A DNA stretch of 64,000 bases from an uncultured virus (IMG/VR IMGVR_UViG_3300031760_000031) (lineage: Duplodnaviria > Heunggongvirae > Uroviricota > Caudoviricetes). Positions 13,590 through 31,428 of this stretch are shown here, one piece after another; position 1 is the first letter of the stretch, and every line of letters starts with the position of its first letter. The stretch lies in the IMG/VR virus record IMGVR_UViG_3300031760_000031; one strand, given 5' to 3'. A program made the translations under genes and the position numbers. The notes beneath the pieces are model-generated. The model did not search any database, had not been told where the DNA came from, and saw only the letters and a program-made list of their open reading frames with translations.

Positions 13590-13916
13590 CTATTCGGATT
13601 TTTCTTCTGCCTTTTTGTCAATAACTTCAACAACTGGCTGATCTTTAGCCATCTGTCTTGCTTTACGATTCTCTTTCATCTTCGAGAAACCGGATTTGAT
13701 TTTTCCAAATAACGGCTTTGCTGCCTTGACATAGACAAACTTGCCAACATGATATAAACCATCAAGTGCAAGTAAGCCTGCGCCAATCGCTAAACCGTCC
13801 TTGACATAGTCTCTTCCTGTTTCTTCCGTAGATTCAACAGAATCAATAGAATCAAGATCAACAACAGTAGGATCAACCTCAACTTCAGTGTTTACGTTTT
13901 CGATTTTTGTAGACAT
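13590..13916 (-). CDS. cassette membrane protein
   Basis: GGAGG SD, single TM segment, preceded by junction motif 13945-13970. Confidence 0.7.
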   Translation of the reverse strand: MSTKIENVNTEVEVDPTVVDLDSIDSVESTEETGRDYVKDGLAIGAGLLALDGLYHVGKFVYVKAAKPLFGKIKSGFSKMKENRKARQMAKDQPVVEVIDKKAEEKSE

Positions 13917-14034
13917 ATCTATTCTTTCCTCCTTTATGTCCTTCATAATATGGAGTGAAAAAAACGCGAATATAAATCCGCGTTCTTCACCACCAATAAT
14001 GTTTTTCGAACCACCAATCTAGTTGTTCTTGCAG

Positions 14035-14883
14035 TCAATAGGCTCTCCAATATTCTTGATACTTTGGAGTGCTTCCATAAGTAATCGAGTAACATGGATA
14101 GCCTTTCCATTTACCAACGGTTACTGTCTTTAAACTGCTTTCATTTAATTCGCAGCTAAATCCTTCATATGGGGTTGCTGAACTCCAGAAAGAGTTCTGT
14201 GCCCTATGAATTTGCGTTTCAGTCAAATAATCTGTAATACGAGGTTCTAAGATACAATACCATTCGTATTCGCTCATGCTTTCGTCAAACGATTTTTCTT
14301 GTTTGTCGTATCCCCTGCCTATTGCATATCTGATTTTATCCAGACTATCAACAAACATGTAATATCCGCTTAGTTCATCTTGAACTAAGATCTTAAGTGT
14401 TCCACCATCCTCTGGATTGATAACATTAATATCATCCATCGGAGGATTATTTTCTACATGATCTTGAGCGATGGCGTTCCTTATTTTCTGTTCCTTCTTT
14501 TCACCAACAATGTCAATCGTTTTCGCGCGATACTCGTCCATGAGAGTTTTTGACATTTCATATGCAGTTGCAAGAGCAGCATTTCTCTTTAAACTAGTAT
14601 TGACAGATCCAACAATGCATAAAGTTGAAGTTACGCCAGTCGCAACAGCTGGAAGATAGTCTTTCCAAACAGTTTTAACAGTTTGAACCGGAGTTAATTC
14701 CTCAACATCCAATTCTTCTTTTGCCTTTTCAATTTTTTCTGCAGCTTCAGGAGCTGCTTTTGCTGCTAAAACACTTGTGGTAACGAATCCACCAATACCC
14801 AATCCTGCTAAAATTTCAGGCGCATGTTTTCTTGAAATGTCAACCAGCCTTAATGCTAAATCTTTAATAATTCCTGTATTCAT
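14035..14883 (-). CDS. DUF6353-like phage protein
   Basis: HAPEILAGLGIGG, YLPAVATG, KRNAALATAY; paralogue of 11893-12858. Confidence 0.7.
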   Translation of the reverse strand: MNTGIIKDLALRLVDISRKHAPEILAGLGIGGFVTTSVLAAKAAPEAAEKIEKAKEELDVEELTPVQTVKTVWKDYLPAVATGVTSTLCIVGSVNTSLKRNAALATAYEMSKTLMDEYRAKTIDIVGEKKEQKIRNAIAQDHVENNPPMDDINVINPEDGGTLKILVQDELSGYYMFVDSLDKIRYAIGRGYDKQEKSFDESMSEYEWYCILEPRITDYLTETQIHRAQNSFWSSATPYEGFSCELNESSLKTVTVGKWKGYPCYSITYGSTPKYQEYWRAY

Positions 14884-14914
14884 TTTTTTTCTCCTTTGCA
14901 AAGAATAAAAGAGT

Positions 14915-15142
14915 CTATTCAGACTCCTTATTTTGATCTTTATACTTCTTTACAGTACCAGCAAGAACGTTAAATGTCTGCCCGATCTGGTAAATAAGCC
15001 ACGATGCTGCCGCAGTTGTTAAACATTGCAATAATGCCGTTTTTCCAATCGACTTTGCTGTTTCTAACTGCTCGTCCGTGTTATCTAACTTATACGGGTC
15101 TTTCTTTTCCTCTTCAGTTGCTTGTAAATTTTTTGATTCCAT
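14915..15142 (-). CDS. cassette protein ending KESE
   Basis: stop codon lies within hairpin 14911-14926. Confidence 0.75.
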   Translation of the reverse strand: MESKNLQATEEEKKDPYKLDNTDEQLETAKSIGKTALLQCLTTAAASWLIYQIGQTFNVLAGTVKKYKDQNKESE

Positions 15143-15206
15143 ATAAATCTCCTTTCATAAAAGCTCGTGAAAAAATAAAGAGCATCTTAATCGATGCTCT
15201 TACCTT

Positions 15207-15371
15207 CTAAAACCTTCCTAATACAAATTTTACGAAACATCCACATAAAAAGAAAAATACCACTAAATCACCGACGATCATTAATCCTGTTACGCCACCA
15301 AATATAACGCAGCACGCAATCAGTAATGATGCCAGTGATATAAATGCTATAATTCCAAATAATGTGATCAT
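15207..15371 (-). CDS. 54-aa hydrophobic cassette protein
   Basis: hand-translated MITLFGIIAF...; AAGGAGG SD, motif 15393-15418, terminator 15177-15201. Confidence 0.65.
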   Translation of the reverse strand: MITLFGIIAFISLASLLIACCVIFGGVTGLMIVGDLVVFFFLCGCFVKFVLGRF

Positions 15372-15436
15372 AATAATATGTACCTCCTTATCATTAAAGG
15401 ATCTGAGATTTCAGCGAGCTAAAAACAAAAGAGGAA

Positions 15437-15835
15437 CTAATGTCCTCTTCTGCCGAAATTGAAAATATCCCTTAAGGATCCGGTAATCCATCGACCACCA
15501 GAAGTCGTGTATGTATTTGTCCTTTCAAAATTCGTAATTGCCTTCATCTGATTTGTAAAGATGTTAGATCTGATGCCCAAATCTAATAACATCGTCAACA
15601 AAGGTACTGATGCGACGAAAACATCTTTTTTAGTGATTTCACCGTTTTTCTCAATTTTCTTGAGTTCCGTTTCTCTTTCACTATCAATTTTCTTTTCCTC
15701 GTTCAATACATTTGCTATTGACGTTGCTTTTGAAATGTATTTCAGATAATCCTCTGAATCAGCTTCGCAAGCATACGCTCTGTCCAAACAATCATTCATC
15801 GAATCTTCCAGATTCTTTCTTGTTTTATCGTCCAT
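15437..15835 (-). CDS. cassette hypothetical protein
   Basis: 132 aa, AAAGGAG SD, motif 15852-15877. Confidence 0.75.
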   Translation of the reverse strand: MDDKTRKNLEDSMNDCLDRAYACEADSEDYLKYISKATSIANVLNEEKKIDSERETELKKIEKNGEITKKDVFVASVPLLTMLLDLGIRSNIFTNQMKAITNFERTNTYTTSGGRWITGSLRDIFNFGRRGH

Positions 15836-15869
15836 AAGTTATTCTCCTTTCATTATAGGAATTGAAATA

Positions 15870-16052
15870 TCAGCGATGGGCAGCAAACAGAGCCCTATCC
15901 ATAGCGCCTGTTGTTATTGAACCTAATATATAGCCAACAGTTAAGCTGCAGACAACCATAATACCAATAGAAAGGACCTTCCCGTTATTAACTAATTCTG
16001 AAACTTGATCTTTTATCGTTGTTTTGATTTCTTCTTTTTGTTTTCCAAACAT
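15870..16052 (-). CDS. small membrane protein
   Basis: one TM segment, AAAGGAG SD. Confidence 0.65.
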   Translation of the reverse strand: MFGKQKEEIKTTIKDQVSELVNNGKVLSIGIMVVCSLTVGYILGSITTGAMDRALFAAHR

Positions 16053-16340
16053 TTAAGAATCTCCTTTCTTTATGACTGGCTTTGTTACGTTTTCTTTCTT
16101 TACTCTAGGCCATTTAATCTTTTGCCCGCAATGTGCACAATATTTTTCCTTTATTCCACTCAACGGATCAATACTATGAAATTCATTACAAGATGGGCAA
16201 AACCATACAAGATTTAAACCTTCCATCATTTTTGGAGGCTTTGCCGTGTCTTTTTCATAAAGTTTCTCAATTTTCTTTATTGAGTATTCTTTTCCACGAA
16301 TATGGATAATATCATAAGGATCCGGTCTCTTCATTTTCAC
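16053..16340 (-). CDS. zinc-ribbon protein
   Basis: CPSC...YCAHCGQKIKW. Confidence 0.7.
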   Translation of the reverse strand: MKMKRPDPYDIIHIRGKEYSIKKIEKLYEKDTAKPPKMMEGLNLVWFCPSCNEFHSIDPLSGIKEKYCAHCGQKIKWPRVKKENVTKPVIKKGDS

Positions 16341-16968
16341 CTCTTATTTCTTTTACATATGGGAATTCTTTTAAAATATCAACGAATTCGTTCCATTCGT
16401 CCAGTTTATGCCCAGTTCTCTGATTGATCATAGTCATTACGTTTTCGTAATTCATCGTGATCGTTCTTCTCTGGTTATATGATGATGGAAGTGTTTGGAT
16501 CATTTGCCACCACCATTTCTTATCTTTTGTTTCTATGAAATTCTGTCTTGCCGTATTTAAGCAGTTCAGATTGCTTTCAAAACCTGCAAGATTTCCTTCG
16601 GTTAAATGCTCAACACTAAAATCATCTAATGTAAATTCTTTTGCATGAATCTTATGCATTGTACTGCAGCTGTTTGAAACTGTTCCTACCTTATATGTGT
16701 CGAACTCTTTCCACCAATAAAGTGGTGCAGTAATATCCATTGAGACAAATATCTGCCTAAGATACTTTCTATGCTCCGGACCAGCAGCATAAAGTTTTTG
16801 CATAAGTTTTAAATCATTTGGCCCGATCATATGTATTACTGGGATTTCATCAGCATAAAATGTTGCAACTCCATTTGAATCACTTTTAGCCCAGCTGTTA
16901 AGAGGATTTCTCATACCTCTAATAGCGTGTTCAAATCCCCAAATATCTATGTTTTCAACTTTAATCAT
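16312..16968 (-). CDS. ThyX-like (FAD-dependent thymidylate synthase-like) protein
   Basis: AIRGMRNP, HRKYLRQI, APLYWWKEFDTYKVG, SCSTMH, H(K)LDEW blocks; no canonical RHRx7S motif. Confidence 0.6.
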   Translation of the reverse strand: MIKVENIDIWGFEHAIRGMRNPLNSWAKSDSNGVATFYADEIPVIHMIGPNDLKLMQKLYAAGPEHRKYLRQIFVSMDITAPLYWWKEFDTYKVGTVSNSCSTMHKIHAKEFTLDDFSVEHLTEGNLAGFESNLNCLNTARQNFIETKDKKWWWQMIQTLPSSYNQRRTITMNYENVMTMINQRTGHKLDEWNEFVDILKEFPYVKEIRGENEETGSL

Positions 16969-17191
16969 TCTGCTTCTCCTTGTAATCCTTACATTCACCA
17001 ATGGAAAATCCTATTGATGTTCCTTTGCGATGACCATTTTCTCCGCATGGGCACGTTTTCCACTTTTGACATTTCCTACAGTCTTTCATTCTGTTTCTCC
17101 CTACTGCATCATCAACAACATGACTCCGCCAAATAGAAGCATAGCTCCTATGTAAATCATCCATTCCGCTATATTTTCAATCATTTTTTAT

Positions 17192-17371
17192 TTAATCCTC
17201 TATAAGAACATATTTAGTTCCTAAATCATTACAATCAACATACACGGAGTTAGCTATTTTAAGCCCATATTCTCCAATAGTCTCGTCGCATGCAAGTTCT
17301 CCAGCATACACTACAACTGGAAGACTTTTATCAAGCTTTTCAAGCTTTCCAATTAATTCACCTACTGTCAT
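17192..17371 (-). CDS. 59-aa hypothetical protein
   Basis: hand-translated MTVGELIGKLEKLD...; AAGGAGAG SD. Confidence 0.6.
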   Translation of the reverse strand: MTVGELIGKLEKLDKSLPVVVYAGELACDETIGEYGLKIANSVYVDCNDLGTKYVLIED

Positions 17372-17670
17372 TTTTTACTCTCCTTTTCTTGCTCAATTAA
17401 ATATGATTCTAATCTCCAATTATAATTCCGATATCGATACCATTGACGAGCAGTTAGCGGTTTTTTAGGCTTTAAATACCAAAACCAGACATCATATGGC
17501 CATATTAGAATGAACAGCGTATAAGCTTTTATAAGTTCAATAGGAGTATCTTTTTCTTTCCAAATCTCACGATCTGAATCTTTAAAGTAATTATTCACTC
17601 GTATAACATTCCAAATAAATCTCCAATGCGCTCCGATTAACCAAAAAACCAGGAAATATTTCCAAATCAT
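17368..17670 (-). CDS. membrane protein
   Basis: two hydrophobic segments, ILIWP motif. Confidence 0.65.
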   Translation of the reverse strand: MIWKYFLVFWLIGAHWRFIWNVIRVNNYFKDSDREIWKEKDTPIELIKAYTLFILIWPYDVWFWYLKPKKPLTARQWYRYRNYNWRLESYLIEQEKESKK

Positions 17671-17682
17671 TTTCTACTCTCC

Positions 17683-18045
17683 TTATTCATAATAGGAACC
17701 CATATCTAGTTCGATTTCTGTATCTAGATTCACTTCTTCTATCCAAAATGATTCATGGAAAGATCTTACAGATTCTTCTGCTTCAAGATCAATATTATAA
17801 GGAACCCATTTTCTAGATTTTGGATCCCAAGTTTTTTCGTTTTTGTACCAATCAGGATGCTCATTATAAGTTTTTTGATAAGTCTTGATAAGTTCCTCTT
17901 TATTAGAGTATTTACTATCATTAATTAACCGGTCCATTTCTTTCTCTACAGATTCTTTTGATTCAGAAATGTATTTAATACAGATATCGACTGCATAGGA
18001 TTCATTCCACGCTTTGTTATGCGCTAAAATATAAACAGTTTCCAT
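17683..18045 (-). CDS. hypothetical phage protein
   Basis: 120 aa, AAGGAGAG SD. Confidence 0.7.
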   Translation of the reverse strand: METVYILAHNKAWNESYAVDICIKYISESKESVEKEMDRLINDSKYSNKEELIKTYQKTYNEHPDWYKNEKTWDPKSRKWVPYNIDLEAEESVRSFHESFWIEEVNLDTEIELDMGSYYE

Positions 18046-18128
18046 TTTCTACTCTCCTTTAAATTCTTGTACTTTATTAAAATATCTTCAAAACTCGTAA
18101 CCTATATTCTATAAAAAAGAGTAGACGC

Positions 18129-19076: not shown

Positions 19077-19113
19077 TTTACTCTCCTTTTAAAATGCGAA
19101 AAATAAAAGGAGT

Positions 19114-19230
19114 TTAATCCTCCTCGATTACATAGTATTCTTCTTCAGAAACGATGTATTCGTGAAAATAAGCTCCTGTTACTGTTCCGATTCCAACACC
19201 GGCAATAAACGCTACTAAAATATAAATCAT
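19114..19230 (-). CDS. 38-aa membrane peptide (cassette)
   Basis: hand-translated MIYILVAFIAGVGIG...; motif 19249-19274; stop within a hairpin. Confidence 0.6.
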   Translation of the reverse strand: MIYILVAFIAGVGIGTVTGAYFHEYIVSEEEYYVIEED

Positions 19231-19276
19231 ATTTTATTCCTCTCCTTCATTAAAGTGCAGGAGATTTTCGCGATTA

Positions 19277-19492
19277 TTAACTCTGTTTTACTTGAACGAT
19301 CAGATACTTTTTCTTCCGAAGATCTTCAAGTGGGCATAAAACAACAAGATTATAATGATCTTTCTCTGGATCATTTATATTTACGCCTAAGATTGCATCA
19401 ACATTCTTAAATATCAATATTGAAGCAATTATACCGCCAACAATCAATCCGATAGCAACAGATATAAACATAAAGAAATGAATCTGATCCAT
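19277..19492 (-). CDS. small membrane protein
   Basis: N-terminal TM segment. Confidence 0.65.
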   Translation of the reverse strand: MDQIHFFMFISVAIGLIVGGIIASILIFKNVDAILGVNINDPEKDHYNLVVLCPLEDLRKKKYLIVQVKQS

Positions 19493-19494
19493 AT

Positions 19495-20420: not shown

Positions 20421-20469
20421 GTTTTTAGTTCCTTTCTTTTTTTTTATGTGTATTATTTATGAGAAGAAA

Positions 20470-20660
20470 AAAAAATAAAGGGAAACCTACAGCAAAATTA
20501 TCTATAGATTTCCCTTACCTGTGATTTGAGAATAGAGAGGTATGCATCACAGGTTAACCATTGCCGTCTCCTTTAATCAGTAAATATATATTAAAGGCCC
20601 GTGCCCGATTTAACAGTGATGTATCCCTCAGTTTTCTAAATATACAAACCACCTCCTCTC
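20470..20660 (-). ncRNA. candidate structured small RNA occupying a cassette slot
   Basis: stems 20537-20557/20610-20629, 20570-20577/20590-20597, 20517-20525/20546-20554; terminator 20480-20514 with U-tract; no ORF. Confidence 0.55.
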
Positions 20661-20700
20661 ATTAGAGCCGTTGAAAAAATCGCGAAAATAAAAAGAGTCG

Positions 20701-20781
20701 CTATGAATGGCTCCTTTCAAGTCCACTCATACCAACCCATAAGATCAAGCAAATGATCAATGTCGCGATTGTTTTTATCAT
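20701..20781 (-). CDS. 26-aa hydrophobic peptide (cassette)
   Basis: MIKTIATLIICLILWVGMSGLERSHS; GAGGAG SD, motif 20799-20824. Confidence 0.55.
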   Translation of the reverse strand: MIKTIATLIICLILWVGMSGLERSHS

Positions 20782-20849
20782 TTCTCTATTCTCCTCTCAT
20801 TAGAGAGCATGAAATTTACGCGAATAGAAAATATAAAAGAAAAAGAGTC

Positions 20850-21041
20850 TTATTCAGACTCCTTATCATTCGACAATAATCCGCCTTCAACAGCAGAACC
20901 GATCGCTCCAGCAGTGTATTCACATCCTGCTTCAAATGACTTATTAAGTAACGTAGTTACTCCAAAAGCACCTATAGCAAGATATACGATCTGCTTTAAA
21001 AAACTTCTCGTTTCCATTTTTTCAAAATTCGTTTTTGGCAT
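20850..21041 (-). CDS. cassette membrane protein ending KESE
   Basis: start MPKT after AAGGAGG; stop within hairpin 20845-20861. Confidence 0.7.
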   Translation of the reverse strand: MPKTNFEKMETRSFLKQIVYLAIGAFGVTTLLNKSFEAGCEYTAGAIGSAVEGGLLSNDKESE

Positions 21042-21099
21042 TTTTAATGTCCTCCTTCTCATTAGAGCATTTGAAAATTTCGCGAAAAATAAAAGAGCC

Positions 21100-21351
21100 T
21101 TATTCAGACTCTTCATCGGATTTGGCTGTAATCCATAATAATAACATTAATAGCCAGTATGGAATCCATCCGATCGCGCATATTAACGCAAGTAATATAA
21201 AGTAAGCTTTTAGTAAAACTGTACTAGGTTCACGCATAAAAAGCTGTTCGTACAGCTGATGCAAAAAATCTAGTAAATCTTCACTATAAACATCTTTAAG
21301 TAAAAATACGAATGTGATTCCAATGCATAATAAATTAATCATATATAACAT
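21100..21351 (-). CDS. cassette membrane protein ending EESE
   Basis: two TM segments; stop within hairpin 21095-21111. Confidence 0.7.
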   Translation of the reverse strand: MLYMINLLCIGITFVFLLKDVYSEDLLDFLHQLYEQLFMREPSTVLLKAYFILLALICAIGWIPYWLLMLLLWITAKSDEESE

Positions 21352-21399
21352 AAATTACATTACCTCCATAAGAGGACATGAAAAATAAAAGAAAAAGCG

Positions 21400-21597
21400 T
21401 TAGTCTTTGTTTAAGACTAAAACTGCCTTTTCTTCGATGAACTCAACGGCATCATCAAGCCTTTCATCAACATAATCCATGAATTTAAATGCTTCTTGTT
21501 CGATCTCTGGCCAATCATAAGCAACAATTTTACCTAAATTGATCATGCTAATGATCGAGACAGTAAATAAACAAATTAAGCCAATAATTTTCTTCAT
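21400..21597 (-). CDS. cassette membrane protein
   Basis: start MKKII after GAGAGG; motif 21620-21645. Confidence 0.65.
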   Translation of the reverse strand: MKKIIGLICLFTVSIISMINLGKIVAYDWPEIEQEAFKFMDYVDERLDDAVEFIEEKAVLVLNKD

Positions 21598-21659
21598 AAA
21601 TATATTTCCTCTCTTTCTCATTAGAGAGGATGTAAAATACGCGGAAAAATAAAAGGCAA

Positions 21660-21851
21660 CTATCTTCTGTTGCCCCATTTAAGGTTGTAACGATACGCAA
21701 ACTTTATTGCTCCGATTAATGTAGCGATCAGCAATATTAAACCGAACATATCATTAGGGTTTGTTTCTAAGCCCTTTAAGCTTGTTAGAAACCCAATTTC
21801 TATTAATATTCCAATAACCGCTACTTTAATAATAAAAATAATGTTTTCCAT
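21660..21851 (-). CDS. cassette membrane protein
   Basis: start MENII, two TM segments; motif 21871-21896. Confidence 0.65.
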   Translation of the reverse strand: MENIIFIIKVAVIGILIEIGFLTSLKGLETNPNDMFGLILLIATLIGAIKFAYRYNLKWGNRR

Positions 21852-21909
21852 ATTGTTTCCTCTCTTTCTCATTAAAGAGAATGAAATATACACGAAAAAC
21901 AAAAGAGTC

Positions 21910-22110
21910 TTATTCAGACTCTTCCTTTCTTGGAAATTCAATTCCTCTTGGCCTTCTGAGATCAGCCCATTTGGATTTGATCCAATTGCAAACACTCTTC
22001 GTGTTTTTGCCTTCTGTAGCCATATAATCGACTACAACAGCTGTAGACACGCCATTAACAATTAATTTAATCCATTGTCTAATCTCTCTAGACCGTTCAA
22101 TATTTCCCAT
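21910..22110 (-). CDS. cassette protein ending EESE
   Basis: start MGNI after AAGGAGG; stop within hairpin 21905-21921. Confidence 0.7.
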   Translation of the reverse strand: MGNIERSREIRQWIKLIVNGVSTAVVVDYMATEGKNTKSVCNWIKSKWADLRRPRGIEFPRKEESE

Positions 22111-22162
22111 ATTTGAACCTCCTTCATTAAAGGCCAAGTTATTTTAGCGAAAACAAAAGAGT

Positions 22163-22408
22163 CTATTCAGACTCCTTATTTTCGGATGTAATTCTATAAT
22201 AATCTTTAATTCTTTCATCCATTAATTCTTCAGCTCTTCTGATAGAAGCTCTAGCCCTGGTAATTAAATTCTGAATATCATTGACTGTTTCCTCGTCGTC
22301 GATATCAAATATCGCCGCAGGATAAGCATCAAAAGTTGTATCCATAGTATTCTTTAAATCCTCAAGGCACTTCTTATACAGCATAGCTGCTACATAATTT
22401 TTAATCAT
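22163..22408 (-). CDS. cassette protein ending KESE
   Basis: start MIKN after GAGGT; stop within hairpin 22159-22174. Confidence 0.7.
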   Translation of the reverse strand: MIKNYVAAMLYKKCLEDLKNTMDTTFDAYPAAIFDIDDEETVNDIQNLITRARASIRRAEELMDERIKDYYRITSENKESE

Positions 22409-22470
22409 AGTATTATACCTCAATAAAAGAATAAGAAAAATCAACGAAATAAAAAGAGCTTGTTAGGCTC

Positions 22471-22680
22471 TTATTCGAGAATATAAACATTTCCAGGAAG
22501 CTCGATCTTTGCTGACCTGTCCATTTTATGCTTTCTCTTATATTGAAACATAAGATTAGCTTTTGCTCTGGACTCAGATTCAGCTTGAGTTCCTGCTTTC
22601 CATAAATCGTCTATAACTTTCCCAAATTGAGTAACTGCTCCTTCATATCTGTAAAGAAATCTTGGTTTTTCTTCCTTCAT
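22471..22680 (-). CDS. cassette hypothetical protein
   Basis: 69 aa, AAGGAGGT SD, terminator 22456-22470. Confidence 0.75.
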   Translation of the reverse strand: MKEEKPRFLYRYEGAVTQFGKVIDDLWKAGTQAESESRAKANLMFQYKRKHKMDRSAKIELPGNVYILE

Positions 22681-22725
22681 TTTCTTTACCTCCTTTTCAT
22701 AAAAGAGGCCGAAAAAGAAAAGAGC

Positions 22726-22884
22726 TTATTCGTCTAGCTCTTCCTTTGCTATTGTAGGTCGTGATAATTCTTCTCTCCTTCTTGCAATTTCACGTTTTAA
22801 CGCCGTGGTTATTCGTAATATAAATCTATACGAATTCCTGCACAGATAATAAAACCCATAAATTGCTAAAAATTTAATAAACAT
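22726..22884 (-). CDS. 52-aa cassette protein
   Basis: hand-translated MFIKFLAIYG...; GAGGAGG SD. Confidence 0.6.
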   Translation of the reverse strand: MFIKFLAIYGFYYLCRNSYRFILRITTALKREIARRREELSRPTIAKEELDE

Positions 22885-22937
22885 ATCTATTCCTCCTCAT
22901 AAGAGAATGAGAAAAAGAAAAGAGCTTGTTAGGCTCT

Positions 22938-23114
22938 TTAATTAGACATGCTTCTTATGATTTCTTCGTGATACTGCTTGATCTCTGCATTGACAAATGC
23001 CTTAAGTTCTTCCATATTCAATTCTGTCTCTTTAGGCTTTATCAGCATAAATCCTTTTTCTTTTTTCTCGAATTTATCAGTTATTTTTTCATGTCTTCTA
23101 ATTTCTCTAAACAT
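22938..23114 (-). CDS. 58-aa cassette protein
   Basis: hand-translated MFREIRRHEK...; motif 23133-23158. Confidence 0.6.
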   Translation of the reverse strand: MFREIRRHEKITDKFEKKEKGFMLIKPKETELNMEELKAFVNAEIKQYHEEIIRSMSN

Positions 23115-23140
23115 AATTCTTTTCTCCTCCTCATAAGAGA

Positions 23141-23566
23141 CTATGCTTTGTACGCGAACTTCTTTTGTTGCTTATCGAGAATATAAAAGAACTTGCGATA
23201 CATTTGATAGAACATGTCCCTGCCACAAGGGATACCATCGTGCATCCGGAAATATGAATATGTTAATCCCTTAGTTACTGCTTTGAAAATATAATCACCA
23301 AGAATCGGATCCGTTGCTTTAGCGCATTTTTCGATCATATCCATCTTTTCTAAATACTCATGACGTTTTTCTAAGATCTCATCACCTGACATTGACTTTT
23401 CAAACTTTATACAAATTATCCCACCGGGAATTTTTTCGCACAGATCAATGTACTTTCTCTTGAACTCAGGGTATTGCAAACAGAAATGCTTTAATTCATA
23501 ATACCGATGCTTGGAAATATAATACTGATTATTCTTAGAAATTTCAGATCTAATCACAGTTCCCAT
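23141..23566 (-). CDS. conserved phage protein, probable transcriptional regulator (RinA/ArpU-like)
   Basis: ISKHRYYELKHFCLQY...IFKAVT.GLTY...IPCGRDMFYQMYRKFF, with C-terminal HTH-like segment. Confidence 0.55.
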   Translation of the reverse strand: MGTVIRSEISKNNQYYISKHRYYELKHFCLQYPEFKRKYIDLCEKIPGGIICIKFEKSMSGDEILEKRHEYLEKMDMIEKCAKATDPILGDYIFKAVTKGLTYSYFRMHDGIPCGRDMFYQMYRKFFYILDKQQKKFAYKA

Positions 23567-23795
23567 CGTACTGATACCCCGTTTCTTCATATAATCTCTT
23601 TGGAGAAATATAATAGTTTATTCTGCCTTTCTTAGCAGAAATCTCACTTGTATTGGTTATGCGTTTGCCATTTCTTGTGGCAAATCCAATTGGTAACCAT
23701 CCAGCAATAAGTCCTGCACGAATCCAGCAGCTATCTTTTTTGTAAACTTTTGCAGCCACTGCAACCGGCACTGATCCACCTTTGTTAAACATCAA
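23550..23795 (-). CDS. small DNA-binding protein (excisionase-like winged helix)
   Basis: SVPVAVAAKVYKKD..WIRAG...WLPIG...NYYISPKRL. Confidence 0.55.
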   Translation of the reverse strand: MMFNKGGSVPVAVAAKVYKKDSCWIRAGLIAGWLPIGFATRNGKRITNTSEISAKKGRINYYISPKRLYEETGYQYDGNCD

Positions 23796-23905
23796 TAACC
23801 TCCTATAAATTTGATAAATATATAGTAGGTAACAAAACAGTAACCTCTGTCCGTCTTTTGCAAAAATAAGAGAGAATGCCGAAATAAAAAGGGATTTGAA
23901 AATCC

Positions 23906-24067
23906 CTATAAAGCACAGTTATAGTGCTCCGCCACAGAAATGACCTTGTCGATATCGACATTCAGTTCTGACGCTATATCAAAATAGCCATAACCTTCGT
24001 CTAATAACGCTTCGATCTTCTTCCATAAACGGTATGCCCATCTGTCTTTTTTGTTTGTCTTTTTCAT
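23906..24067 (-). CDS. small HTH cassette protein
   Basis: IEALLDEGYGYFDIASELNV; shares EALLDEGY with 24982-25239. Confidence 0.65.
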   Translation of the reverse strand: MKKTNKKDRWAYRLWKKIEALLDEGYGYFDIASELNVDIDKVISVAEHYNCAL

Positions 24068-24150
24068 TATTTTTCTCTCCTTTTTATTTGAGTTTCCTCT
24101 CATAATAGGAGTCGAAATTTACGCGAAATAAATTCAAGTATAAAAATAAT

Positions 24151-24234
24151 AGAGACTGATGGTATTAACTATTCAGGCCTATGGGCTCACTTTTGAGTTT
24201 GCAAGTTAAATTTAAATATAACCATTTTGTCTCC
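24151..24234 (-). ncRNA. candidate ~84-nt structured RNA occupying a cassette slot
   Basis: nested stems GAGAC/GTCTC, ATGGT/ACCAT, TTAACT/AGTTAA, CTCA/TGAG; begins right after motif 24235-24250. Confidence 0.5.
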
Positions 24235-24261
24235 ATTACAGGGAATGAAAAACAAAAGAGT

Positions 24262-24459
24262 CTATGCAGACTCTTCGTTTGATTCTTTAACAACAGGTTC
24301 TTCTTTCAAGATGCCGATATCTTTTAAATGACATTCAAGTCCATCGATCTCTGTGCTAAGTTCCATCATCTTAGCTTGGAGATGTTTAGCTCTTTGTCTT
24401 TCTTTAAAAGCTACGATCAGCGATCCGATTGTAATTAAACCAAGTAATTTGTTGCTCAT
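24262..24459 (-). CDS. cassette membrane protein ending EESA
   Basis: stop within variant hairpin 24258-24273. Confidence 0.7.
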   Translation of the reverse strand: MSNKLLGLITIGSLIVAFKERQRAKHLQAKMMELSTEIDGLECHLKDIGILKEEPVVKESNEESA

Positions 24460-24518
24460 TTTGAATCCTCCTTTTCTTCATAAGAGCAAATGAAAAATAA
24501 AAGAGCTTATGCAAGCTC

Positions 24519-24635
24519 TTACTCAAATATAAGAATCCAGTTTTCATCAGACATATATTTATCAAATGAATCAAAATCATCCGAATCAATATATACCTTT
24601 TCACCAGTTTCCTTATTTTTAAATACGAAACGCAT
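24519..24635 (-). CDS. 38-aa cassette protein
   Basis: hand-translated MRFVFKNKETGEK...; GGAGGAGG SD; terminator 24501-24520. Confidence 0.6.
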   Translation of the reverse strand: MRFVFKNKETGEKVYIDSDDFDSFDKYMSDENWILIFE

Positions 24636-24701
24636 AGTTCCTCCTCCTTCATAAAAGAGATAGAAATATCAACGAAAATGAAAAAGGACTTGCTGGGTCC
24701 T

Positions 24702-24920
24702 TTACTTTAACTCTCGACAAGCCTGATTGAAATACCGTACATACAAGCTTAGTTCTCTTATAACCGTTTCGGCTTCATTACAGCATTCTTCCTCAGTTGA
24801 ATAAGTCTCCTGATCAAGAATTGTTAAAGCTTCCATGGCTTTGTCTTCTATAGCTTCTGCATAGTACAGTAAAGCATCTTTTTTATAATCGAATTTATCA
24901 ATTGTTAAAATCTCTGCCAT
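24702..24920 (-). CDS. cassette hypothetical protein
   Basis: start MAEIL after AAGGAGG; the longer ORF call runs across a junction. Confidence 0.7.
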   Translation of the reverse strand: MAEILTIDKFDYKKDALLYYAEAIEDKAMEALTILDQETYSTEEECCNEAETVIRELSLYVRYFNQACRELK

Positions 24921-24981
24921 ATTTAATCCTCCTTCATAAAAGAAGCGGAAAAATAAAAGAAGAGACGATGCTCTTCTGAAA

Positions 24982-25239
24982 TCACTTTTTAGTTCGCTTT
25001 TTATCGATTCTTTGTTTGTAATACCGGATAACGCTTTCTGGTTTGTCGAGCTTCTTAGCGATTTCTTGGATATTATATCCTTCATCCAATAAAGCTTCGA
25101 CTTTGCCCATATAAAAAGCTCTTCCGACTTCAAAATTCATTTTTGCTCGATATCTGCGTTCGATTTCTCCAATAGTCGTTTCTTCTTTTTTGGCTCCATC
25201 TTCACGAATAATTCCATAATAAAATGTGTTTTTAATCAT
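24982..25239 (-). CDS. HTH cassette protein
   Basis: VEALLDEGYNIQEIAKKLDKPESVIRYY. Confidence 0.7.
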   Translation of the reverse strand: MIKNTFYYGIIREDGAKKEETTIGEIERRYRAKMNFEVGRAFYMGKVEALLDEGYNIQEIAKKLDKPESVIRYYKQRIDKKRTKK

Positions 25240-25300
25240 TTCGATTCACCTCCATAATAGCAGCTGAAAAAAGCACTAAAATATCCAGAAAAATCAAGTC

Positions 25301-25329
25301 TTGTTCGTAATAAATGTAAGCGCTATACT
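25301..25329 (+). promoter_or_regulatory. sigma70/A-type promoter
   Basis: TTGTTC-N17-TATACT upstream of the AAAGGAGG SD. Confidence 0.6.
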
Positions 25330-25360
25330 TTTTATACAAATATAAAAGGAGGACAAACTC

Positions 25361-25672
25361 ATGCCAAAAAGATCACCAAGATTCATTGCTTCTGAATTAG
25401 GAACTTCTTATACCAAAGTCATTAATGCGCTTATCGATCTGAATTATCTTACCGATGAAGACACTTCTACGATCGGTGATTATTCCGAAGGTGGCAGACC
25501 GGTGTTCGATGATGATGTTCTTCGTGAAGTAGAAGAATATCTTGATAAAGACAGTATCAGATGCTGCAATTGTGGAAAAGTTTTAATTCCAAATGGCGGA
25601 AGAGTATCTACAAATTCAGGATACTTCACTTGTCCTTGGTGCGGAACAGAGAACAAAGTTGACAAAAATTAA
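25361..25672 (+). CDS. HTH-like + zinc-ribbon protein (counter-oriented, moron-like)
   Basis: own promoter and SD; IASELGTSYTKVINAL; CCNCG...CPWCG; shared terminator 25671-25689. Confidence 0.75.
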   Translation: MPKRSPRFIASELGTSYTKVINALIDLNYLTDEDTSTIGDYSEGGRPVFDDDVLREVEEYLDKDSIRCCNCGKVLIPNGGRVSTNSGYFTCPWCGTENKVDKN

Positions 25673-25693
25673 GAGCCTATGTGGCTCTTTTTA

Positions 25694-25939
25694 TTATTCG
25701 AATTTTTGTCCACAGAATGGGCAGTATTTGATCTCTTTAAAATCTGAATGCACATACCACTCAGAAGGCGGTAAAGTCTTATCTTCCCAAGCCAGGTCAT
25801 TTTGAATATTCACTTTGCCATCATTGTACTTCGATAAAGTTACAGTGCTGGTCATCTTTCCAAAATCACCAAGATTGAATCCGATCTTCATCAGCCTCTT
25901 CTTGCCGTTTTCATTCTCAAGATTACAAAATTTGCACAT
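25694..25939 (-). CDS. zinc-binding cassette protein
   Basis: MCKFC...IKYCPFCGQK; paralogue of 28488-28733. Confidence 0.75.
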   Translation of the reverse strand: MCKFCNLENENGKKRLMKIGFNLGDFGKMTSTVTLSKYNDGKVNIQNDLAWEDKTLPPSEWYVHSDFKEIKYCPFCGQKFE

Positions 25940-26020
25940 ATAAGTGTCCTCCTTTTCTATAAAACAGTTTGATTATTTCGCGAATATCAGTAACCTGTAT
26001 CCGCAAAATGAAAAGAGACG

Positions 26021-26347
26021 CTAAGCTTCAGCGTCCCAAGAATGATCTTCTTCGTTACAAACACGTTCGACCCTTTCTTTGCCGATCCATTTTTCGCCAA
26101 AGTGATCGAGTATTTCCTGACGAGAATATCCTTCCCGGTACATATCCAAAACTAGTTTGTCTCTTCTCCGATCTTCATCATCCAATTTCTTTAATTTATC
26201 GAGTGAGATTTCAAGTTCTTTACCGTGTTGTATAAACTGGTGCTTAGTCCATGCCATGTTAATTGCACGTACAAATTCTTTACCAATTAAAACTACTTCT
26301 TTACAAACTACATAAATCCCAATGATTTCAAATAAATTGTATTTCAT
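26021..26347 (-). CDS. cassette protein (TM + HTH-like)
   Basis: GAGGAGG SD, junction 26358-26410. Confidence 0.7.
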   Translation of the reverse strand: MKYNLFEIIGIYVVCKEVVLIGKEFVRAINMAWTKHQFIQHGKELEISLDKLKKLDDEDRRRDKLVLDMYREGYSRQEILDHFGEKWIGKERVERVCNEEDHSWDAEA

Positions 26348-26392
26348 GATTTGAATTCCTCCTCATAATAGAACCAGAAAAATAAAAGAAGC

Positions 26393-26806
26393 TTAAATCT
26401 TAGCTTCTTTCATCCAGAACTCAATCTCGACTTTCGGATCGATTTTTAAGCACCCTATAAGCTGTAACTCATCGCCCAATCTGTAAGTCATAATATTCCT
26501 TTTCATTTGCTTATTGATCCAATTAATAAACTGTTTTGTGCAAGCTTCTCTTATGAAGTCATTATACTCAACAAGTTCTGTCCAATCTTTACCCTTATTT
26601 TCTTCGAAATAATTCGGATAAAGCTCGTCCCATTCTTTGTTAAACTTTGTATATCCTTCATCAGAGTTGCATAAATTTGCATAAACATTATGTGTCAGCA
26701 TTAACTCTTCTTTCATAAGCTTTTCTAAACCAGGAATAAACCTAGCGAACGATTTCTTAAAGTTTCTTATCTCATAGTGCACTTCAAAATATAATTCGTG
26801 TTCCAT
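26393..26806 (-). CDS. cassette hypothetical protein
   Basis: 137 aa between junctions. Confidence 0.75.
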   Translation of the reverse strand: MEHELYFEVHYEIRNFKKSFARFIPGLEKLMKEELMLTHNVYANLCNSDEGYTKFNKEWDELYPNYFEENKGKDWTELVEYNDFIREACTKQFINWINKQMKRNIMTYRLGDELQLIGCLKIDPKVEIEFWMKEAKI

Positions 26807-26849
26807 TTTGAATTCCTCCTCATAATAGAATGCGAAAAATAAAAGAGCC

Positions 26850-27110
26850 TTATTCAGACTCCTTTATTTTAAGTTTTCCATTTTCTAAGATATCAATTTC
26901 CAGATCACTATTTTCTATCCAATTTATTACGCGATTAATTTCTTCATCTTCACCAGATATAACATATTTGTCATGTAAAAATCTATGGTAAATTAAACTA
27001 GTGTCAATGTTCTTTTTTACATCAACATTAATATAATTCCTACCAAAGTTTTCAATAATTATCTGTTCAGATCCTGGAAACCAGCAATAAATTGTAATCT
27101 GTCTACTCAT
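26850..27110 (-). CDS. cassette protein ending KESE
   Basis: stop within hairpin 26845-26861. Confidence 0.75.
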   Translation of the reverse strand: MSRQITIYCWFPGSEQIIIENFGRNYINVDVKKNIDTSLIYHRFLHDKYVISGEDEEINRVINWIENSDLEIDILENGKLKIKESE

Positions 27111-27172
27111 AATAATGTTCTCCTCCTCATAAAAGAAAGAGAAAAATAAAAGAGCCTTATTCAGACTCTAAT

Positions 27173-27379
27173 CTATTTCTTCAACCGGTCTATAAGTTCA
27201 TTAATCATATCGTGTTGCTGTTCAGCAATTTCAATAAGAGTATAAGTTTGAGACTTCCAGTCTTCTAAAAGCTTGCTATACTTTTTTTCAGAGCTTTTAA
27301 GCATCAAATAGTCAGTAACAAAATACCCAGCCAAACCGCCAAGCCCAACTCGACCAATAAATTTAACAAAATTATTCAT
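27173..27379 (-). CDS. cassette membrane protein
   Basis: start MNNF after AAGGAGG; hairpin 27152-27168 just after the stop. Confidence 0.7.
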   Translation of the reverse strand: MNNFVKFIGRVGLGGLAGYFVTDYLMLKSSEKKYSKLLEDWKSQTYTLIEIAEQQHDMINELIDRLKK

Positions 27380-27423
27380 AGTTGATTCCTCCTTCATAAA
27401 AGAAACGGAAAAATAAAAGAGCC

Positions 27424-27696
27424 TTATTCAGACTCTTTATTCTGGTTAACTTTATACTCTAAAAATACACCAAGTAAATCTAATGGCCATAGAAGTATTA
27501 CGATTAATACAGCTCTTAATATGATCCATACTTTTTCTAAAAGATACTTAATATATGCAGACCTTGTTAAATATTGCTCAAAACTTCTACATATTTTTGC
27601 TGCTCTTTTATAATCAGGATCCTGTGAAGCTATAATCATTCGATATATTCCTATCACTAAGCCAATGCCAAAATACCAAAATATAAATTTAAGCAT
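27424..27696 (-). CDS. cassette membrane protein ending KESE
   Basis: two TM segments; stop within hairpin 27419-27435. Confidence 0.75.
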   Translation of the reverse strand: MLKFIFWYFGIGLVIGIYRMIIASQDPDYKRAAKICRSFEQYLTRSAYIKYLLEKVWIILRAVLIVILLWPLDLLGVFLEYKVNQNKESE

Positions 27697-27751
27697 TATA
27701 AAGCTTACCTCCTCATAATAGAACGCGAAAAATAAAAGAGTTTGAATAAAC

Positions 27752-28246
27752 TCAAACTCCTTTAATCAGACGTGCTACTTCTTTGGGATCAGCTTCGACC
27801 CAATACCATTTCTTAGTTTTTCTGTCATATTTTTGTCCATATACGCAACTATAATTATCACCGTTCTTATATGCGACTTGTACTGCTTTAACCTGTGGAC
27901 TACTCTCCCTTGAACCGATTCCTCCTTTTCTATTGGCTGTAAATGGTAAATCAGTATTCAAACATTGCACTGTCCATTCGTCTGAACATCTCTTCATGTT
28001 TGCATACCAGTTCCAAGTATCACCAATACGGAACGAGTTATCTGGTTTTCCGTACCAAGTAATCTGATCTGCAGTACCTTTCGGCACTAAGTAAGATGAC
28101 GCGCTGCGATTCTTCTCACAGAGAACTAATTCATGAGTATCTTCTAACTCTTTGCATAATTCCTCAAAGAATGATTCACATTTTTTAAATCTGTTTAAAA
28201 TCTTTTCGTCATTCAAAACTCTTCTACTTCTTCTAATGTATTTCAT
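27752..28246 (-). CDS. cassette hypothetical protein
   Basis: 164 aa between junctions. Confidence 0.8.
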   Translation of the reverse strand: MKYIRRSRRVLNDEKILNRFKKCESFFEELCKELEDTHELVLCEKNRSASSYLVPKGTADQITWYGKPDNSFRIGDTWNWYANMKRCSDEWTVQCLNTDLPFTANRKGGIGSRESSPQVKAVQVAYKNGDNYSCVYGQKYDRKTKKWYWVEADPKEVARLIKGV

Positions 28247-28291
28247 AATACATCCTCCTTCATAAGAGGACCGGAAAAAAAAAAGAACTTG

Positions 28292-28444
28292 TTAAGGTTC
28301 TTTCTTTAATAAATCTTCTTGAATCTTTGAACGCCTAATCATTCTAATTGCTTCTGCCGAAAGAAATTCTTGCTCCTCTTTTGGTAATCCATCATACCAA
28401 TCTTTAATTTTTTTCTTTTGCTTGTTAGTTAAATGCTTAGCCAT
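28292..28444 (-). CDS. 50-aa cassette protein
   Basis: hand-translated MAKHLTNKQKKK...; stop within hairpin 28285-28300. Confidence 0.6.
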   Translation of the reverse strand: MAKHLTNKQKKKIKDWYDGLPKEEQEFLSAEAIRMIRRSKIQEDLLKKEP

Positions 28445-28487
28445 ATTCATTTCCTCCTCATAATAGAAACGGAAAAATAAAAGAGCC

Positions 28488-28733
28488 TTATTTAGACTCT
28501 CTTAGTTTTCGTCCACAAAACGGGCAATAATTGATTTTTGTTTTCATCCATTTTGAATTATCGGTTTCCATCGGAAATAAAAATAATTCTAAATAATAAT
28601 CGCTGGCATCTGAAGATTTGCACATAGATAATTCTCCTTCTATAAATCCAAGTGCTCCGCAATTAAGTTTTACAGTTCTTCCGATAGGAACAGCATAATC
28701 TTCATTAATGTACTCTTCACATCTTTTGCACAT
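28488..28733 (-). CDS. zinc-binding protein, first cassette next to the integrase
   Basis: MCKRC...INYCPFCGRKLRESK; stop within variant hairpin 28483-28499. Confidence 0.75.
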   Translation of the reverse strand: MCKRCEEYINEDYAVPIGRTVKLNCGALGFIEGELSMCKSSDASDYYLELFLFPMETDNSKWMKTKINYCPFCGRKLRESK

Positions 28734-28764
28734 GTTATGCACCTCCTCATAAAACAATCTGTAA

Positions 28765-28793
28765 TTCGCACGAAGGTTACGATGTGGTATGAT
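28765..28793 (+). promoter_or_regulatory. putative integrase promoter (extended -10)
   Basis: TTCGCA-N17-TATGAT with TG extension; overlaps divergent cassette motif 28749-28774. Confidence 0.5.
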
Positions 28794-28835
28794 GTAATCG
28801 GTTCGTACAGATAAGCTTATAAAGGAGGAATAAGC

Positions 28836-29909
28836 ATGAGAACCAAACGCCATATGAAACTGCCAAATGGATTCGGACAAATATCCAAATTAAAGGCACC
28901 TTTACGAAAGCCATTCAGAGCTATGATAACGATCGGAACGGACGCATCCGGTAGACCAATCTGTAAGATCCTCAAACCACAAGGATACTTCGAGACGTAT
29001 AACGAAGCGTATATTGCATTAGTGGAATATCATCAAGATCCATATAAAGCTTTTCAGGAAATTTCCCTCGGCGAAATTTTTCAGAAATGGTTTGACGATA
29101 CTTCAGACGATCGGAACGACCACACAAATCGTTATTACGAGACAGCATGGAAACATATCTCAAAATATCAACACATAAGATTCAAAGACATAAAGATCCC
29201 GCTGATTAAACAGATGGTTTCTGATAAAGAATTGAATGCATCTGCACCAGCTCAGATCAAGAATCTTCTGAACCAGCTTTACGACTATGCGGTTGAGCAT
29301 GAGATCGTATCTCAGAACCTCTCTAGAATGACAAAAATAAAAGGAGCTGTCAGCCGTACGATCAAGAATCATCATATGACATTCACGGATGATGAGATCT
29401 CTAAACTCTGGAAGAATATCAGCGATTACTACGTTAGAGCCATTCTAATACAGTGCTACAGCGGATTTCGTCCAGGTGAGCTCTGCGACCTTAAGTTGGA
29501 AAATATCCACTTAGAAGAGAACTATATGATCGGAGGATTTAAAACTGAAGCAGGAACTAATAGAATCGTTCCGATCCATCCGGCAATTAAGAATCTCCTG
29601 ATTAAGCAGATCGAGATCGCAAAAACAAAAGGGAGTGAATATCTTATGCTGAATAAGAAAGACGGAAAACTCACACCGGCGATCTACCGAACTATGTTCA
29701 TCGATATAGTTAAGCAGCTGGATCTTAATCCGGAGCATAAGTGCCACGATCCTCGTAAGTACTTTGTCAGTCAAGCTAAGAAATATCAACTGGACGAATA
29801 TGCAATTAAGCGTATAGTTGGGCATACGATCACCGATCTGACTGAATCAGTCTATACTGAACGCGGTATCGACTGGTTATACTCGGAGATATGCAAGATA
29901 CCCGGATAG
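28836..29909 (+). CDS. int: tyrosine integrase
   Basis: catalytic R (GFRPGE), K (GFKT), HDPR, VGH, Y (VYT); N-terminal arm-binding-like KLPNGFGQI. Confidence 0.95.
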   Translation: MRTKRHMKLPNGFGQISKLKAPLRKPFRAMITIGTDASGRPICKILKPQGYFETYNEAYIALVEYHQDPYKAFQEISLGEIFQKWFDDTSDDRNDHTNRYYETAWKHISKYQHIRFKDIKIPLIKQMVSDKELNASAPAQIKNLLNQLYDYAVEHEIVSQNLSRMTKIKGAVSRTIKNHHMTFTDDEISKLWKNISDYYVRAILIQCYSGFRPGELCDLKLENIHLEENYMIGGFKTEAGTNRIVPIHPAIKNLLIKQIEIAKTKGSEYLMLNKKDGKLTPAIYRTMFIDIVKQLDLNPEHKCHDPRKYFVSQAKKYQLDEYAIKRIVGHTITDLTESVYTERGIDWLYSEICKIPG

Positions 29910-30130: not shown

Positions 30131-30182
30131 AGAATATCTGTACGAACCTCTTCCTTATTATATATAGTAGCTATTTTGCAAA

Positions 30183-31120: not shown

Positions 31121-31129
31121 ACTCGCTCC

Positions 31130-31342: not shown

Positions 31343-31399
31343 TTATTGGTCGGGCTCCTTTCTTAATTAGCTAGCATTATCACCGGCACACCATAAAAG

Positions 31400-31428
31400 A
31401 AAGCTCCCCTATTAGGAAGAGGAGCTTT
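31400..31428 (-). terminator. intrinsic terminator
   Basis: aaagctcc...ggagcttt hairpin with U-tract. Confidence 0.65.

Follow-up and report, generated by a model that had tools for sequence, protein, structure and literature searches.

A 64,000-nucleotide stretch of DNA from an uncultured virus of the Caudoviricetes (IMG/VR record IMGVR_UViG_3300031760_000031), referred to here as the window, contains a row of small genes that lies beside a phage tyrosine integrase and is punctuated by a repeated junction sequence (positions 13590–29909). Comparison with related genomes shows that these junctions mark the borders of gene cassette gain, loss, replacement and reordering. A preliminary description of the window had read the region as a distinct, integron-like array launched by the integrase. 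It is better placed with the repeated promoter/stem-loop (PeSL) elements of T4-type phages: it amounts to PeSL-like shuffling that takes a new form in a new lineage, and is not a new integron.

The account considered likely as a whole places the region in a temperate siphovirus as its early/accessory gene arm, where self-contained expression units are exchanged through homology between junctions and the integrase is an ordinary one. Each small gene would form its own unit, with an intrinsic terminator ending the upstream gene, the U-tract of that terminator running into a promoter-like element, and a Shine-Dalgarno sequence (SD) coming next. A YonO-like RNA polymerase of the phage would read the element, starting at the purines that follow TNTWAT. 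Since the junctions are the sole sequence common to otherwise unrelated genes, homology-directed exchange would occur there, over 9–36 nt, with partners in the same genome, a co-infecting phage or a prophage. Such exchange would delete, insert, replace and move whole genes and would always leave a working terminator, promoter and SD. The integrase would carry out attP x attB integration, and would neighbor the array because the early arm starts beside it.

Anatomy of the repeated junction

In the reading direction, each junction presents the stop codon of the upstream gene at or in a hairpin of 6–13 bp, then a U-tract, the promoter-like element and, within a few bases, the SD. The element occurs in a long form, TCGY-N5-WWC-N6-YNTWAT-GRR, and in a compact form in which the U-tract takes the place of its upstream half. 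Across the lineage, its consensus can be written TCGCR-N5-WWC-N6-YNTWAT-GRR, and the observed anatomy suggests an expression unit. Judged from open reading frame (ORF) and motif positions, the element is found at about 27 of the 32 gene boundaries between 19.1 and 28.8 kb, with four further copies at 13.9–15.9 kb (Table 1); the preliminary description had noticed both sets. The first unit (28763) has the element and lacks a U-tailed terminator ahead of it, as expected if the junctions are expression signals.

The strict pattern WWC-N6-YNTWATGRR matches 28 times in the window, always on the minus strand, and 27 of these matches lie within 13590–29909. In 200 order-2 Markov sequences modeled on that region, it occurs 0.76 times on average and never more than 5 times. 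The sole match outside the array (62903–62920, minus strand) precedes the tail chaperone gene and resembles a terminator with U-tract and SD. Terminator-like hairpins are also in excess (46 observed; 7.3 ± 2.4 in shuffles), and a scan for sigma-70-like promoters returned 37 where 64 were expected. A direct-repeat search yielded many overlapping repeat families at gene boundaries. All four copies of the identical 28-mer reported earlier were recovered, each consisting of the 3′ part of a minus-strand hairpin plus the U-tract.

Gene gain, loss and reordering at junctions

Two complete IMG/VR relatives, G001 (85,080 nt) and G002 (84,113 nt), are collinear with the window and 95–98% identical to each other. 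Within the array, four cassettes are confined to G001 and one to G002, two alleles have been swapped (37% and 52%), and one reordering is seen. The cassette order is 5,6,7,8,9,10 versus 5,8,X,9,7,10, which reads most simply as a two-cassette block that was excised and would have re-entered one junction upstream. The check named in the preliminary description was whether such breakpoints in relatives fall inside junctions. This is where 15 of the 16 G001–G002 alignment-block ends inside the array lie, within −45 to +30 of a motif (P = 6e-9; these intervals cover 24% of the array, and only block ends inside it were counted).

Contigs from two sequencing runs, X4 and X5, are ~97% identical to the window and contain an additional cassette of 195 nt, around which the whole junction 22882–22938 is duplicated. 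Their homology to the window starts or ends at 27394, 28750, 28747 and 26355; junction-only joints in X5, with sides of 21–40 nt, were not counted as events. The first cassette is replaced in X4 and X5, while the first cassettes are common to G001 and G002, which differ further in and distally. Variation among relatives is densest next to the integrase, where a 3-kb segment also holds the junctions that are most alike. Cassettes move between lineages as well, since ORF 26393–26806 is 96% identical between the window and G001 versus 88% between G001 and G002. Furthermore, identical 27-mers occur in the window and in G001/G002, phages whose integrases share 50% identity, so that junctions are shared letter for letter.

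The preliminary description had also suggested that circles or deletions be sought in reads. In the source-like run X1, none was present among the joints listed (15 of 44), in assembled contigs, which drop rare forms. Unitigs of this run break at a 30-nt repeat common to 27140–27169 and 27408–27437, and the enclosed piece is of similar depth (13.4 versus 11.8 and 12.3). The proposal in the preliminary description that junctions are both expression units and exchange boundaries agrees with the terminator-promoter-SD anatomy and with the cassette events of the relatives, the expression role being read from sequence.

The position of the crossovers speaks to mechanism. Four of 12 two-sided events, equivalent to three independent ones, gave an exact overlap with scarless joints; strict extension resolved three of 11. 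Relative to the motif, the crossover intervals are −14 to +21 (36 nt), −16 to +2 (19 nt) and +7 to +15 (8–9 nt). The last two are disjoint, and thus no single cut position fits. One-sided breakpoints scatter from −29 to +16, and a two-gene indel (17368–18045) uses plain SD-start repeats, which indicates that exchange also takes place without the hairpin junction. Together, the joints point to short-homology recombination and not to fixed-site exchange. Candidate agents are a phage ssDNA-binding protein (SSB), an exonuclease whose gene adjoins that of the polymerase in relatives, RecA of the host, and template switching. The SSB of the window (Table 1), whose Atlas neighbors are PF24083/PF10991, is one possible helper.

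The phage and its lineage

The window consists of AT-rich phage DNA, with replication genes at 0.8–13.5 kb, small genes at 13.6–28.8 kb, the integrase, and lysis and tail genes beyond it from 30.2 kb onward. On its gene content, it is assigned to a temperate siphovirus of the supercluster that joins Faecalibacterium phage FP_oengus, Lactococcus phage 1706 and actinophage clusters AM-AU-AW-BI-CC-DJ-EL. This supercluster and its RNA-dependent RNA polymerase (RdRP)/YonO-like protein are described in 10.1101/842583. Of the supercluster gene set, the primase-polymerase, helicase, SSB, DUF6353 and tail genes were found, and the RdRP/YonO-like polymerase was seen in relatives G001 and G002 only. FP_oengus is the best named-phage match (42% identity for the integrase and 39% for the core gene at 23141). 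Its integrase lies at the start of the record, directly divergent from orthologs of the window’s two core genes. Arrays of small membrane-protein genes behind tail genes are described for clusters AM, AU and CC (PMC5513430; PMC13313380).

G001 and G002 encode a ~1000-aa protein with a GADFDGD motif that is 48% identical to the putative RNA polymerase of FP_oengus, and the position of its gene maps a few kb beyond base 1 of the window. Polymerase matches occur in 250 phage records, 217 of which are Arthrobacter, Gordonia, Streptomyces or Lactococcus phages. Sequencing runs containing window DNA are labeled as bovine or sheep gut, as gut, or with a coded organism, and no RNA run is among those listed. 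A metagenome scan with the window core gene returned 37 loci, with no close strain among them, and a genome scan with the G001 integrase returned one locus. Matches to a composite 33-nt junction pattern in viral contigs were confined to G001 and G002. No tRNA or tmRNA was detected in a scan of the window.

The promoter-like element and the YonO-like polymerase

The element is conserved across supercluster members infecting Firmicutes and Actinobacteria. FP_oengus has ten copies of the long form, mostly without a hairpin, and the long form is also present in relatives from the human gut and the rumen. Arthrobacter phages Circum and CapnMurica have the same hairpin, U-tract and element layout as the window, and Lactococcus phage 1706 has a variant of the element. 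As a separate observation, terminator loops of the CUAACAA/UGAAUAA type recur in distant members (the window, Circum, CapnMurica and L032).

On balance, the element is somewhat more likely than not a promoter read by the phage’s own YonO-like single-chain RNA polymerase. Hexamers of the TA..T type account for eight of 29 window sites, and −11A is absent from 21 of the 29. The FP_oengus copies mostly read CTTTAT, without the first T, and most sites of that phage lack −12T. The purines directly after the hexamer are conserved whether or not an SD is near, and in G002, FP_oengus and Circum a copy of the element precedes the polymerase operon. For YonO of SPbeta, transcription of late genes from one start site has been described, with the promoter sequence left open (PMC5467207). 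No publication mapping this promoter or testing this polymerase was found in a search made largely without subscription journals.

An N-terminal H(Y/H)G motif is common to the polymerase and to about six proteins whose genes lie between those for terminase and portal (G002 62723–73518), a hint that the motif is possibly a capsid-packaging tag. Should this be so, the element could be, throughout the supercluster, the promoter of a virion-packaged YonO-like polymerase. The rumen-type clade of the window would then have fused the element, terminator and SD into a 60-nt connector, through which single genes, or a small RNA, would be released in circular form and inserted at another place or into a different phage as complete expression units. 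This extension is put forward tentatively and is doubtful as a whole; if true, it would amount to a natural modular cloning system run by an uncharacterized polymerase.

The integrase and its putative attachment site

The 357-aa integrase is of the FP_oengus type and aligns to XerA without a gap at the point where an integron insertion would lie, with its catalytic residues intact. An extra insertion domain is a defining feature of integron integrases (IntI). Against the integron-integrase profile TIGR02249, the protein scores 17.7 bits where the cut-off is 265. The ends of attC sites follow the consensus RYYYAAC...GTTRRRY, and such pairs are missing from all 43 tested regions upstream of ORF starts; that the junctions are not attC-like had been recognized earlier.

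Downstream of the integrase stop codon lies a putative attP site, in which two clusters of arm-like words surround an AT-rich core. TGTABGAAY has nine matches in the window, five of them at 29909–30147, one at the integrase promoter, and none in any junction. Similar paired arm-like words lie behind the integrase in G001, G002 and L050. At the other end of the gene, a lone arm-like word is located at the start site of the candidate integrase promoter (28765–28809), which overlaps the first cassette promoter on the opposite strand. This overlap possibly serves as a lysis/lysogeny switch or in autoregulation.

Host housekeeping genes follow the integrase 3′ end at two of the seven loci with flanks read (L068 and L037), and phage tail/lysis genes follow it at the other five. 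None of the 36 phage records that match the integrase is an Arthrobacter, Gordonia, Streptomyces or Lactococcus phage, and lytic relatives with no detectable homolog of this integrase keep the terminator-promoter-SD junction. The distance from the integrase to the core genes is 0.5–6.8 kb, with 0–20 motifs in between (13 loci). The integrase and attP-like region of the window diverge from those of G001 and G002 (50% identity for the integrase) while the neighbors stay at 80–96%, which points to exchange of the integrase module. Taken together, these features make a lysogeny integrase acting on attP x attB most likely.

Alternative explanations

An integron-like system, in which the adjacent tyrosine integrase would recombine the junctions site-specifically and new cassettes would enter beside it, is highly improbable. 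The gene is divergent and adjacent and its catalytic residues are intact, but the protein lacks the IntI signature, attC is missing, and the arm words are clustered in the attP-like site and absent from all junctions, despite the one beside the first promoter. Prophage forms end at this integrase, and the junction, together with its deletions and translocations according to a preprint (10.1101/2020.01.10.891226), occurs in lytic cluster AU phages. Moreover, none of the 36 integrase-matching records comes from the groups holding 217 of the 250 polymerase-bearing ones. Several one-sided breakpoints do end at the U-tract/TTC (+2, +3), yet the crossover intervals are disjoint. The 3 kb of densest variation and most alike junctions beside the integrase resemble integron polarity superficially and weigh to that extent against junction homology as the cause, but the first cassettes are common to G001 and G002, whose differences lie deeper in the array. 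The integrases of the window and G001/G002 are only 50% identical although their junctions are shared letter for letter. That the junctions are merely duplicated expression signals, with homology-independent gene turnover from which selection retains intergenic events, is decidedly unlikely. Several points do count in its favor and against homology-driven exchange: selection for intact genes would also leave intergenic breakpoints, blastn ends are drawn into shared junction sequence and so favor intergenic ends, and the remaining two-sided events (8 of 12) lack a clean overlap, being blurred by divergence or third-party junctions. Relatives whose arrays are short and poor in hairpins also have the element (FP_oengus; 0–20 motifs at the 13 loci). 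What this explanation does not account for are the scarless chimeric junctions, whose exact overlaps measure 36, 19 and 9 nt, the insert that lies between two copies of a whole junction in contigs of two independent runs, the G001–G002 reordering, readable as block excision and re-entry one junction upstream, and identical 27-mers in phages with 50%-alike integrases.

Reading of the element by the host sigma-A together with a phage factor is possible, if rather doubtful. The combined alternative, that shuffling proceeds as above while the element is either a host-polymerase promoter aided by a phage factor, in the style of T4 middle promoters, or an RNA-level translation signal, and that the phage polymerase acts late only, is somewhat less probable still. 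Perfect TATAAT in Circum, CapnMurica and L015 is compatible with host sigma-A, the motif precedes the polymerase operon itself, and YonO of SPbeta transcribes late and not early genes (PMC5467207). These points tell against the phage polymerase as the reader of the element, as does the location of the polymerase gene of this phage, which is outside the window and known from relatives only. On the other side, −11A and −12T are absent from most window and FP_oengus sites, respectively, as noted above, sigma-70 geometry would place the start inside the SD in compact junctions, and the H(Y/H)G motif that the polymerase shares with proteins encoded among head genes hints at packaging. As for translation, folding of the motif over the SD gives a weak signal (native −5.9 versus swapped −5.5 kcal/mol, 4/300, with non-independent junctions), but a test of N6 pyrimidine composition gave no support for SD-masking (P 0.40).

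Genes of the array

The row of ~30 small, head-to-tail minus-strand ORFs given in the preliminary description is real, although it was somewhat overdrawn, as two core genes, further conserved genes of greater length, a gene on the plus strand and a cassette without a conserved ORF lie among them (Table 1). The larger conserved genes at 13.6–19.1 kb include a ParB-like gene (315 aa), phrog_6721 and DUF6353. As stated earlier, the first cassette begins ~100 bp from the integrase, its ATG (28733) lying 102 nt from the integrase start (28836). Membrane segments, previously attributed to many of the ORFs, are found in about one quarter: nine of 45 tested starts passed a crude hydropathy cut-off, and two of the five starts that were off by a few bases gave hydrophobic peptides by eye. 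The ORFs had been called mostly unrelated; several are paralogous (e.g., 24982–25239 and 23906–24067 share 46% identity over 37 aa). Among the integrase-proximal cassettes, only 26393–26806 has a close ortholog in G001/G002 (96%/85%). In FP_oengus and several relatives, the two core genes are the immediate divergent neighbors of the integrase, and the plus-strand ORF at 25361–25672 had no match in G001/G002 by blastp of called ORFs. A CRISPR-like interpretation was rejected, since the “spacers” are SD-led ORFs of 26–164 aa.

The ORF-less cassette is a candidate structured small RNA. Its sequence (20465–20660) is 75% identical in G001/G002, where reading frames are broken and the long stem is kept. 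Folded without the terminator it has a z of −2.8, and two of 200 shuffles were as stable; Rfam gave no match. Antisense targeting by this RNA was considered and dropped, because the best partner differs between the window and G001/G002. A second ORF-less cassette, absent from the window, is found at ~32990–33170 of G002 (L067) and in G001. It has two T-loop-like GGTTTGAATCC hairpins and no Rfam match at gathering score in L010/L011.

Table 1. Coordinates of array, integrase and accessory features in the window.
Feature	Position	Strand	Remarks
ssDNA-binding protein	5549..6031	-	PF24083, phrog_4787; PHROG label “single strand annealing protein”
Distal units among conserved genes	13590..15875	-	Motifs 15866, ~15410, 15171, 13959; DUF6353 at 14035-14883
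Two-gene insert	17368..18045	-	Missing in G001, G002 and X5; flanked by recurring SD-start words instead of the hairpin junction
ORF-less cassette, candidate structured small RNA	20465..20675	-	Promoter motif at 20675; strong terminator
Distal cassettes	20701..23147	-	22938-23114, 22726-22884, 22471-22680, 22163-22408, 21910-22110, 21660-21851, 21400-21597, 21100-21351, 20850-21041, 20701-20781
Distal motifs	23147, 22913, 22713, 22437, 22140, 21885, 21634, 21382, 21075, 20813	-	Mostly long form with TCGY
Identical 28-mer, copy 1	21084..21111	+	Hairpin 3′ part and U-tract of minus strand
Identical 28-mer, copy 2	26834..26861	+	
Identical 28-mer, copy 3	27141..27168	+	
Identical 28-mer, copy 4	27408..27435	+	
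Two core genes	23141..23792	-	23141-23590, 23550-23792; phrog_6058 and phrog_11237; no junction motif
Middle cassettes	23906..26347	-	26021-26347, 25694-25939, 24982-25239, 24702-24920, 24519-24635, 24262-24459, 23906-24067
12-codon remnant among middle cassettes	starts at 24225	-	
Middle-cassette junction motifs	~25965, 25268, 24950, 24665, 24494, 24249, 24116	-	
Opposite-strand ORF, 103 aa	25361..25672	+	C-terminal zinc-ribbon-like motif; Pfam/NCBIfam matches weak, below cut-off
Integrase-proximal cassettes	26340..28510	-	Compact junctions; most variable part among relatives
Integrase-proximal ORFs	28488-28733, 28292-28444, 27752-28246, 27424-27696, 27173-27379, 26850-27110, 26393-26806	-	
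Integrase-proximal junction motifs (first base)	28474, 28276, 27729, 27410, 27143, 26836, 26379	-	Hairpin followed by U-tract merging into TTC-N6-TNTWAT; GAGGAGG-type SD next
First promoter-like element	28746..28775	-	Long form with SD, no terminator ahead; launches array; conserved in G001
Candidate integrase promoter, sigma-70-like	28765-28793	+	Overlaps first cassette promoter on opposite strand; putative
Lone arm-like word	28801-28809	+	Conserved in G001/G002; putative function
Tyrosine integrase, 357 aa	28836..29909	+	FP_oengus type; Pfam Phage_integrase, phrog_1; R-K-H-R-H-Y residues present
attP-like region	29909..30147	.	Two clusters of TGTA(T/G/C)GAA words around AT-rich core; putative function

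Other loci

Several loci outside the array were noticed in passing. A tail-associated gene run at 30236–34981 (minus strand) includes a BspA-type leucine-rich-repeat protein and has an N-terminal segment that recurs (KQTWKNGDVITEDKLNHMEDG-like); its repeated DNA is also present in G001/G002, making this a second variable module. Two glycosyltransferase genes (families 1 and 2) lie between tail and lysis genes at 36683–38460 (minus strand). Among relatives, L016 has a reverse-transcriptase-like ORF (1762–2829, judged from its N-terminal sequence) among tail genes, at a locus from which the promoter motif is absent. In L068, two small genes at 4548–5091 resemble, by eye, a toxin-antitoxin pair in the early arm of a Faecalibacterium prophage.

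Significance and comparison with known systems

The array is an example of extensive PeSL-type, junction-mediated shuffling in a lineage of temperate gut siphoviruses, and the boundary repeat of this lineage is here resolved into terminator, promoter-like element and SD. The best reason for follow-up is that the element offers a test substrate for the question of which promoter YonO-like single-chain RNA polymerases recognize. In addition, ~30 self-contained small genes per genome provide a pool of candidate host-takeover or counter-defense functions.

Relatives of the window encode a ~1000-aa DxDGD protein of the YonO-like family proposed for the supercluster (10.1101/842583). SPbeta YonO serves late genes from one start site (PMC5467207), whereas the candidate promoter of the window is a many-copy element at early genes. 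The likeness to integrons consists of a tyrosine recombinase divergent from a row of small, largely unrelated genes. Unlike integrons, the window lacks an IntI signature and attC, its cassettes have their own promoter-like element and terminator, the crossover position is variable, and the integrase has its own attP-like site.

The comparison with PeSLs, first drawn in the preliminary description, has held up well. In T4-type phages, the small orphan genes of a hypervariable region are separated by composite terminator and promoter units, an indel of a whole gene leaves one chimeric junction, and exchange through homology has been proposed (PMC2839356; PMC4122927). Repeated composite units, and whole-gene gain and loss that leave a chimeric unit, were likewise found here. 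PeSL promoters are sigma-70-like and proven active, and mini-circles have been seen, whereas the element of the window is not sigma-70-like and is a putative promoter. Furthermore, the element is fused to U-tract and SD within 60–90 nt, and the host genome is that of a temperate siphovirus and not of a T4-like phage. The junctions are therefore not PeSLs in the narrow sense.

The closest parallel comes from the same supercluster, where a 32-bp boundary repeat flanks small genes of cluster AU phages and deletions and translocations are confined to the cassette (10.1101/2020.01.10.891226). Given this report and the PeSLs, the system is not the distinct new one that had been proposed. CapnMurica has the same hairpin, U-tract and promoter layout as the window junction, and the 32-bp repeat is presumably identical with the window motif. 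The preprint does not split the repeat into terminator and promoter, and neither word occurs in its text. Repeated intergenic motifs are also listed for other actinophages (PMC7302621). While the cluster AU cassette comprises five genes and six repeats in lytic phages, the array described here has ~30 units in a temperate phage.

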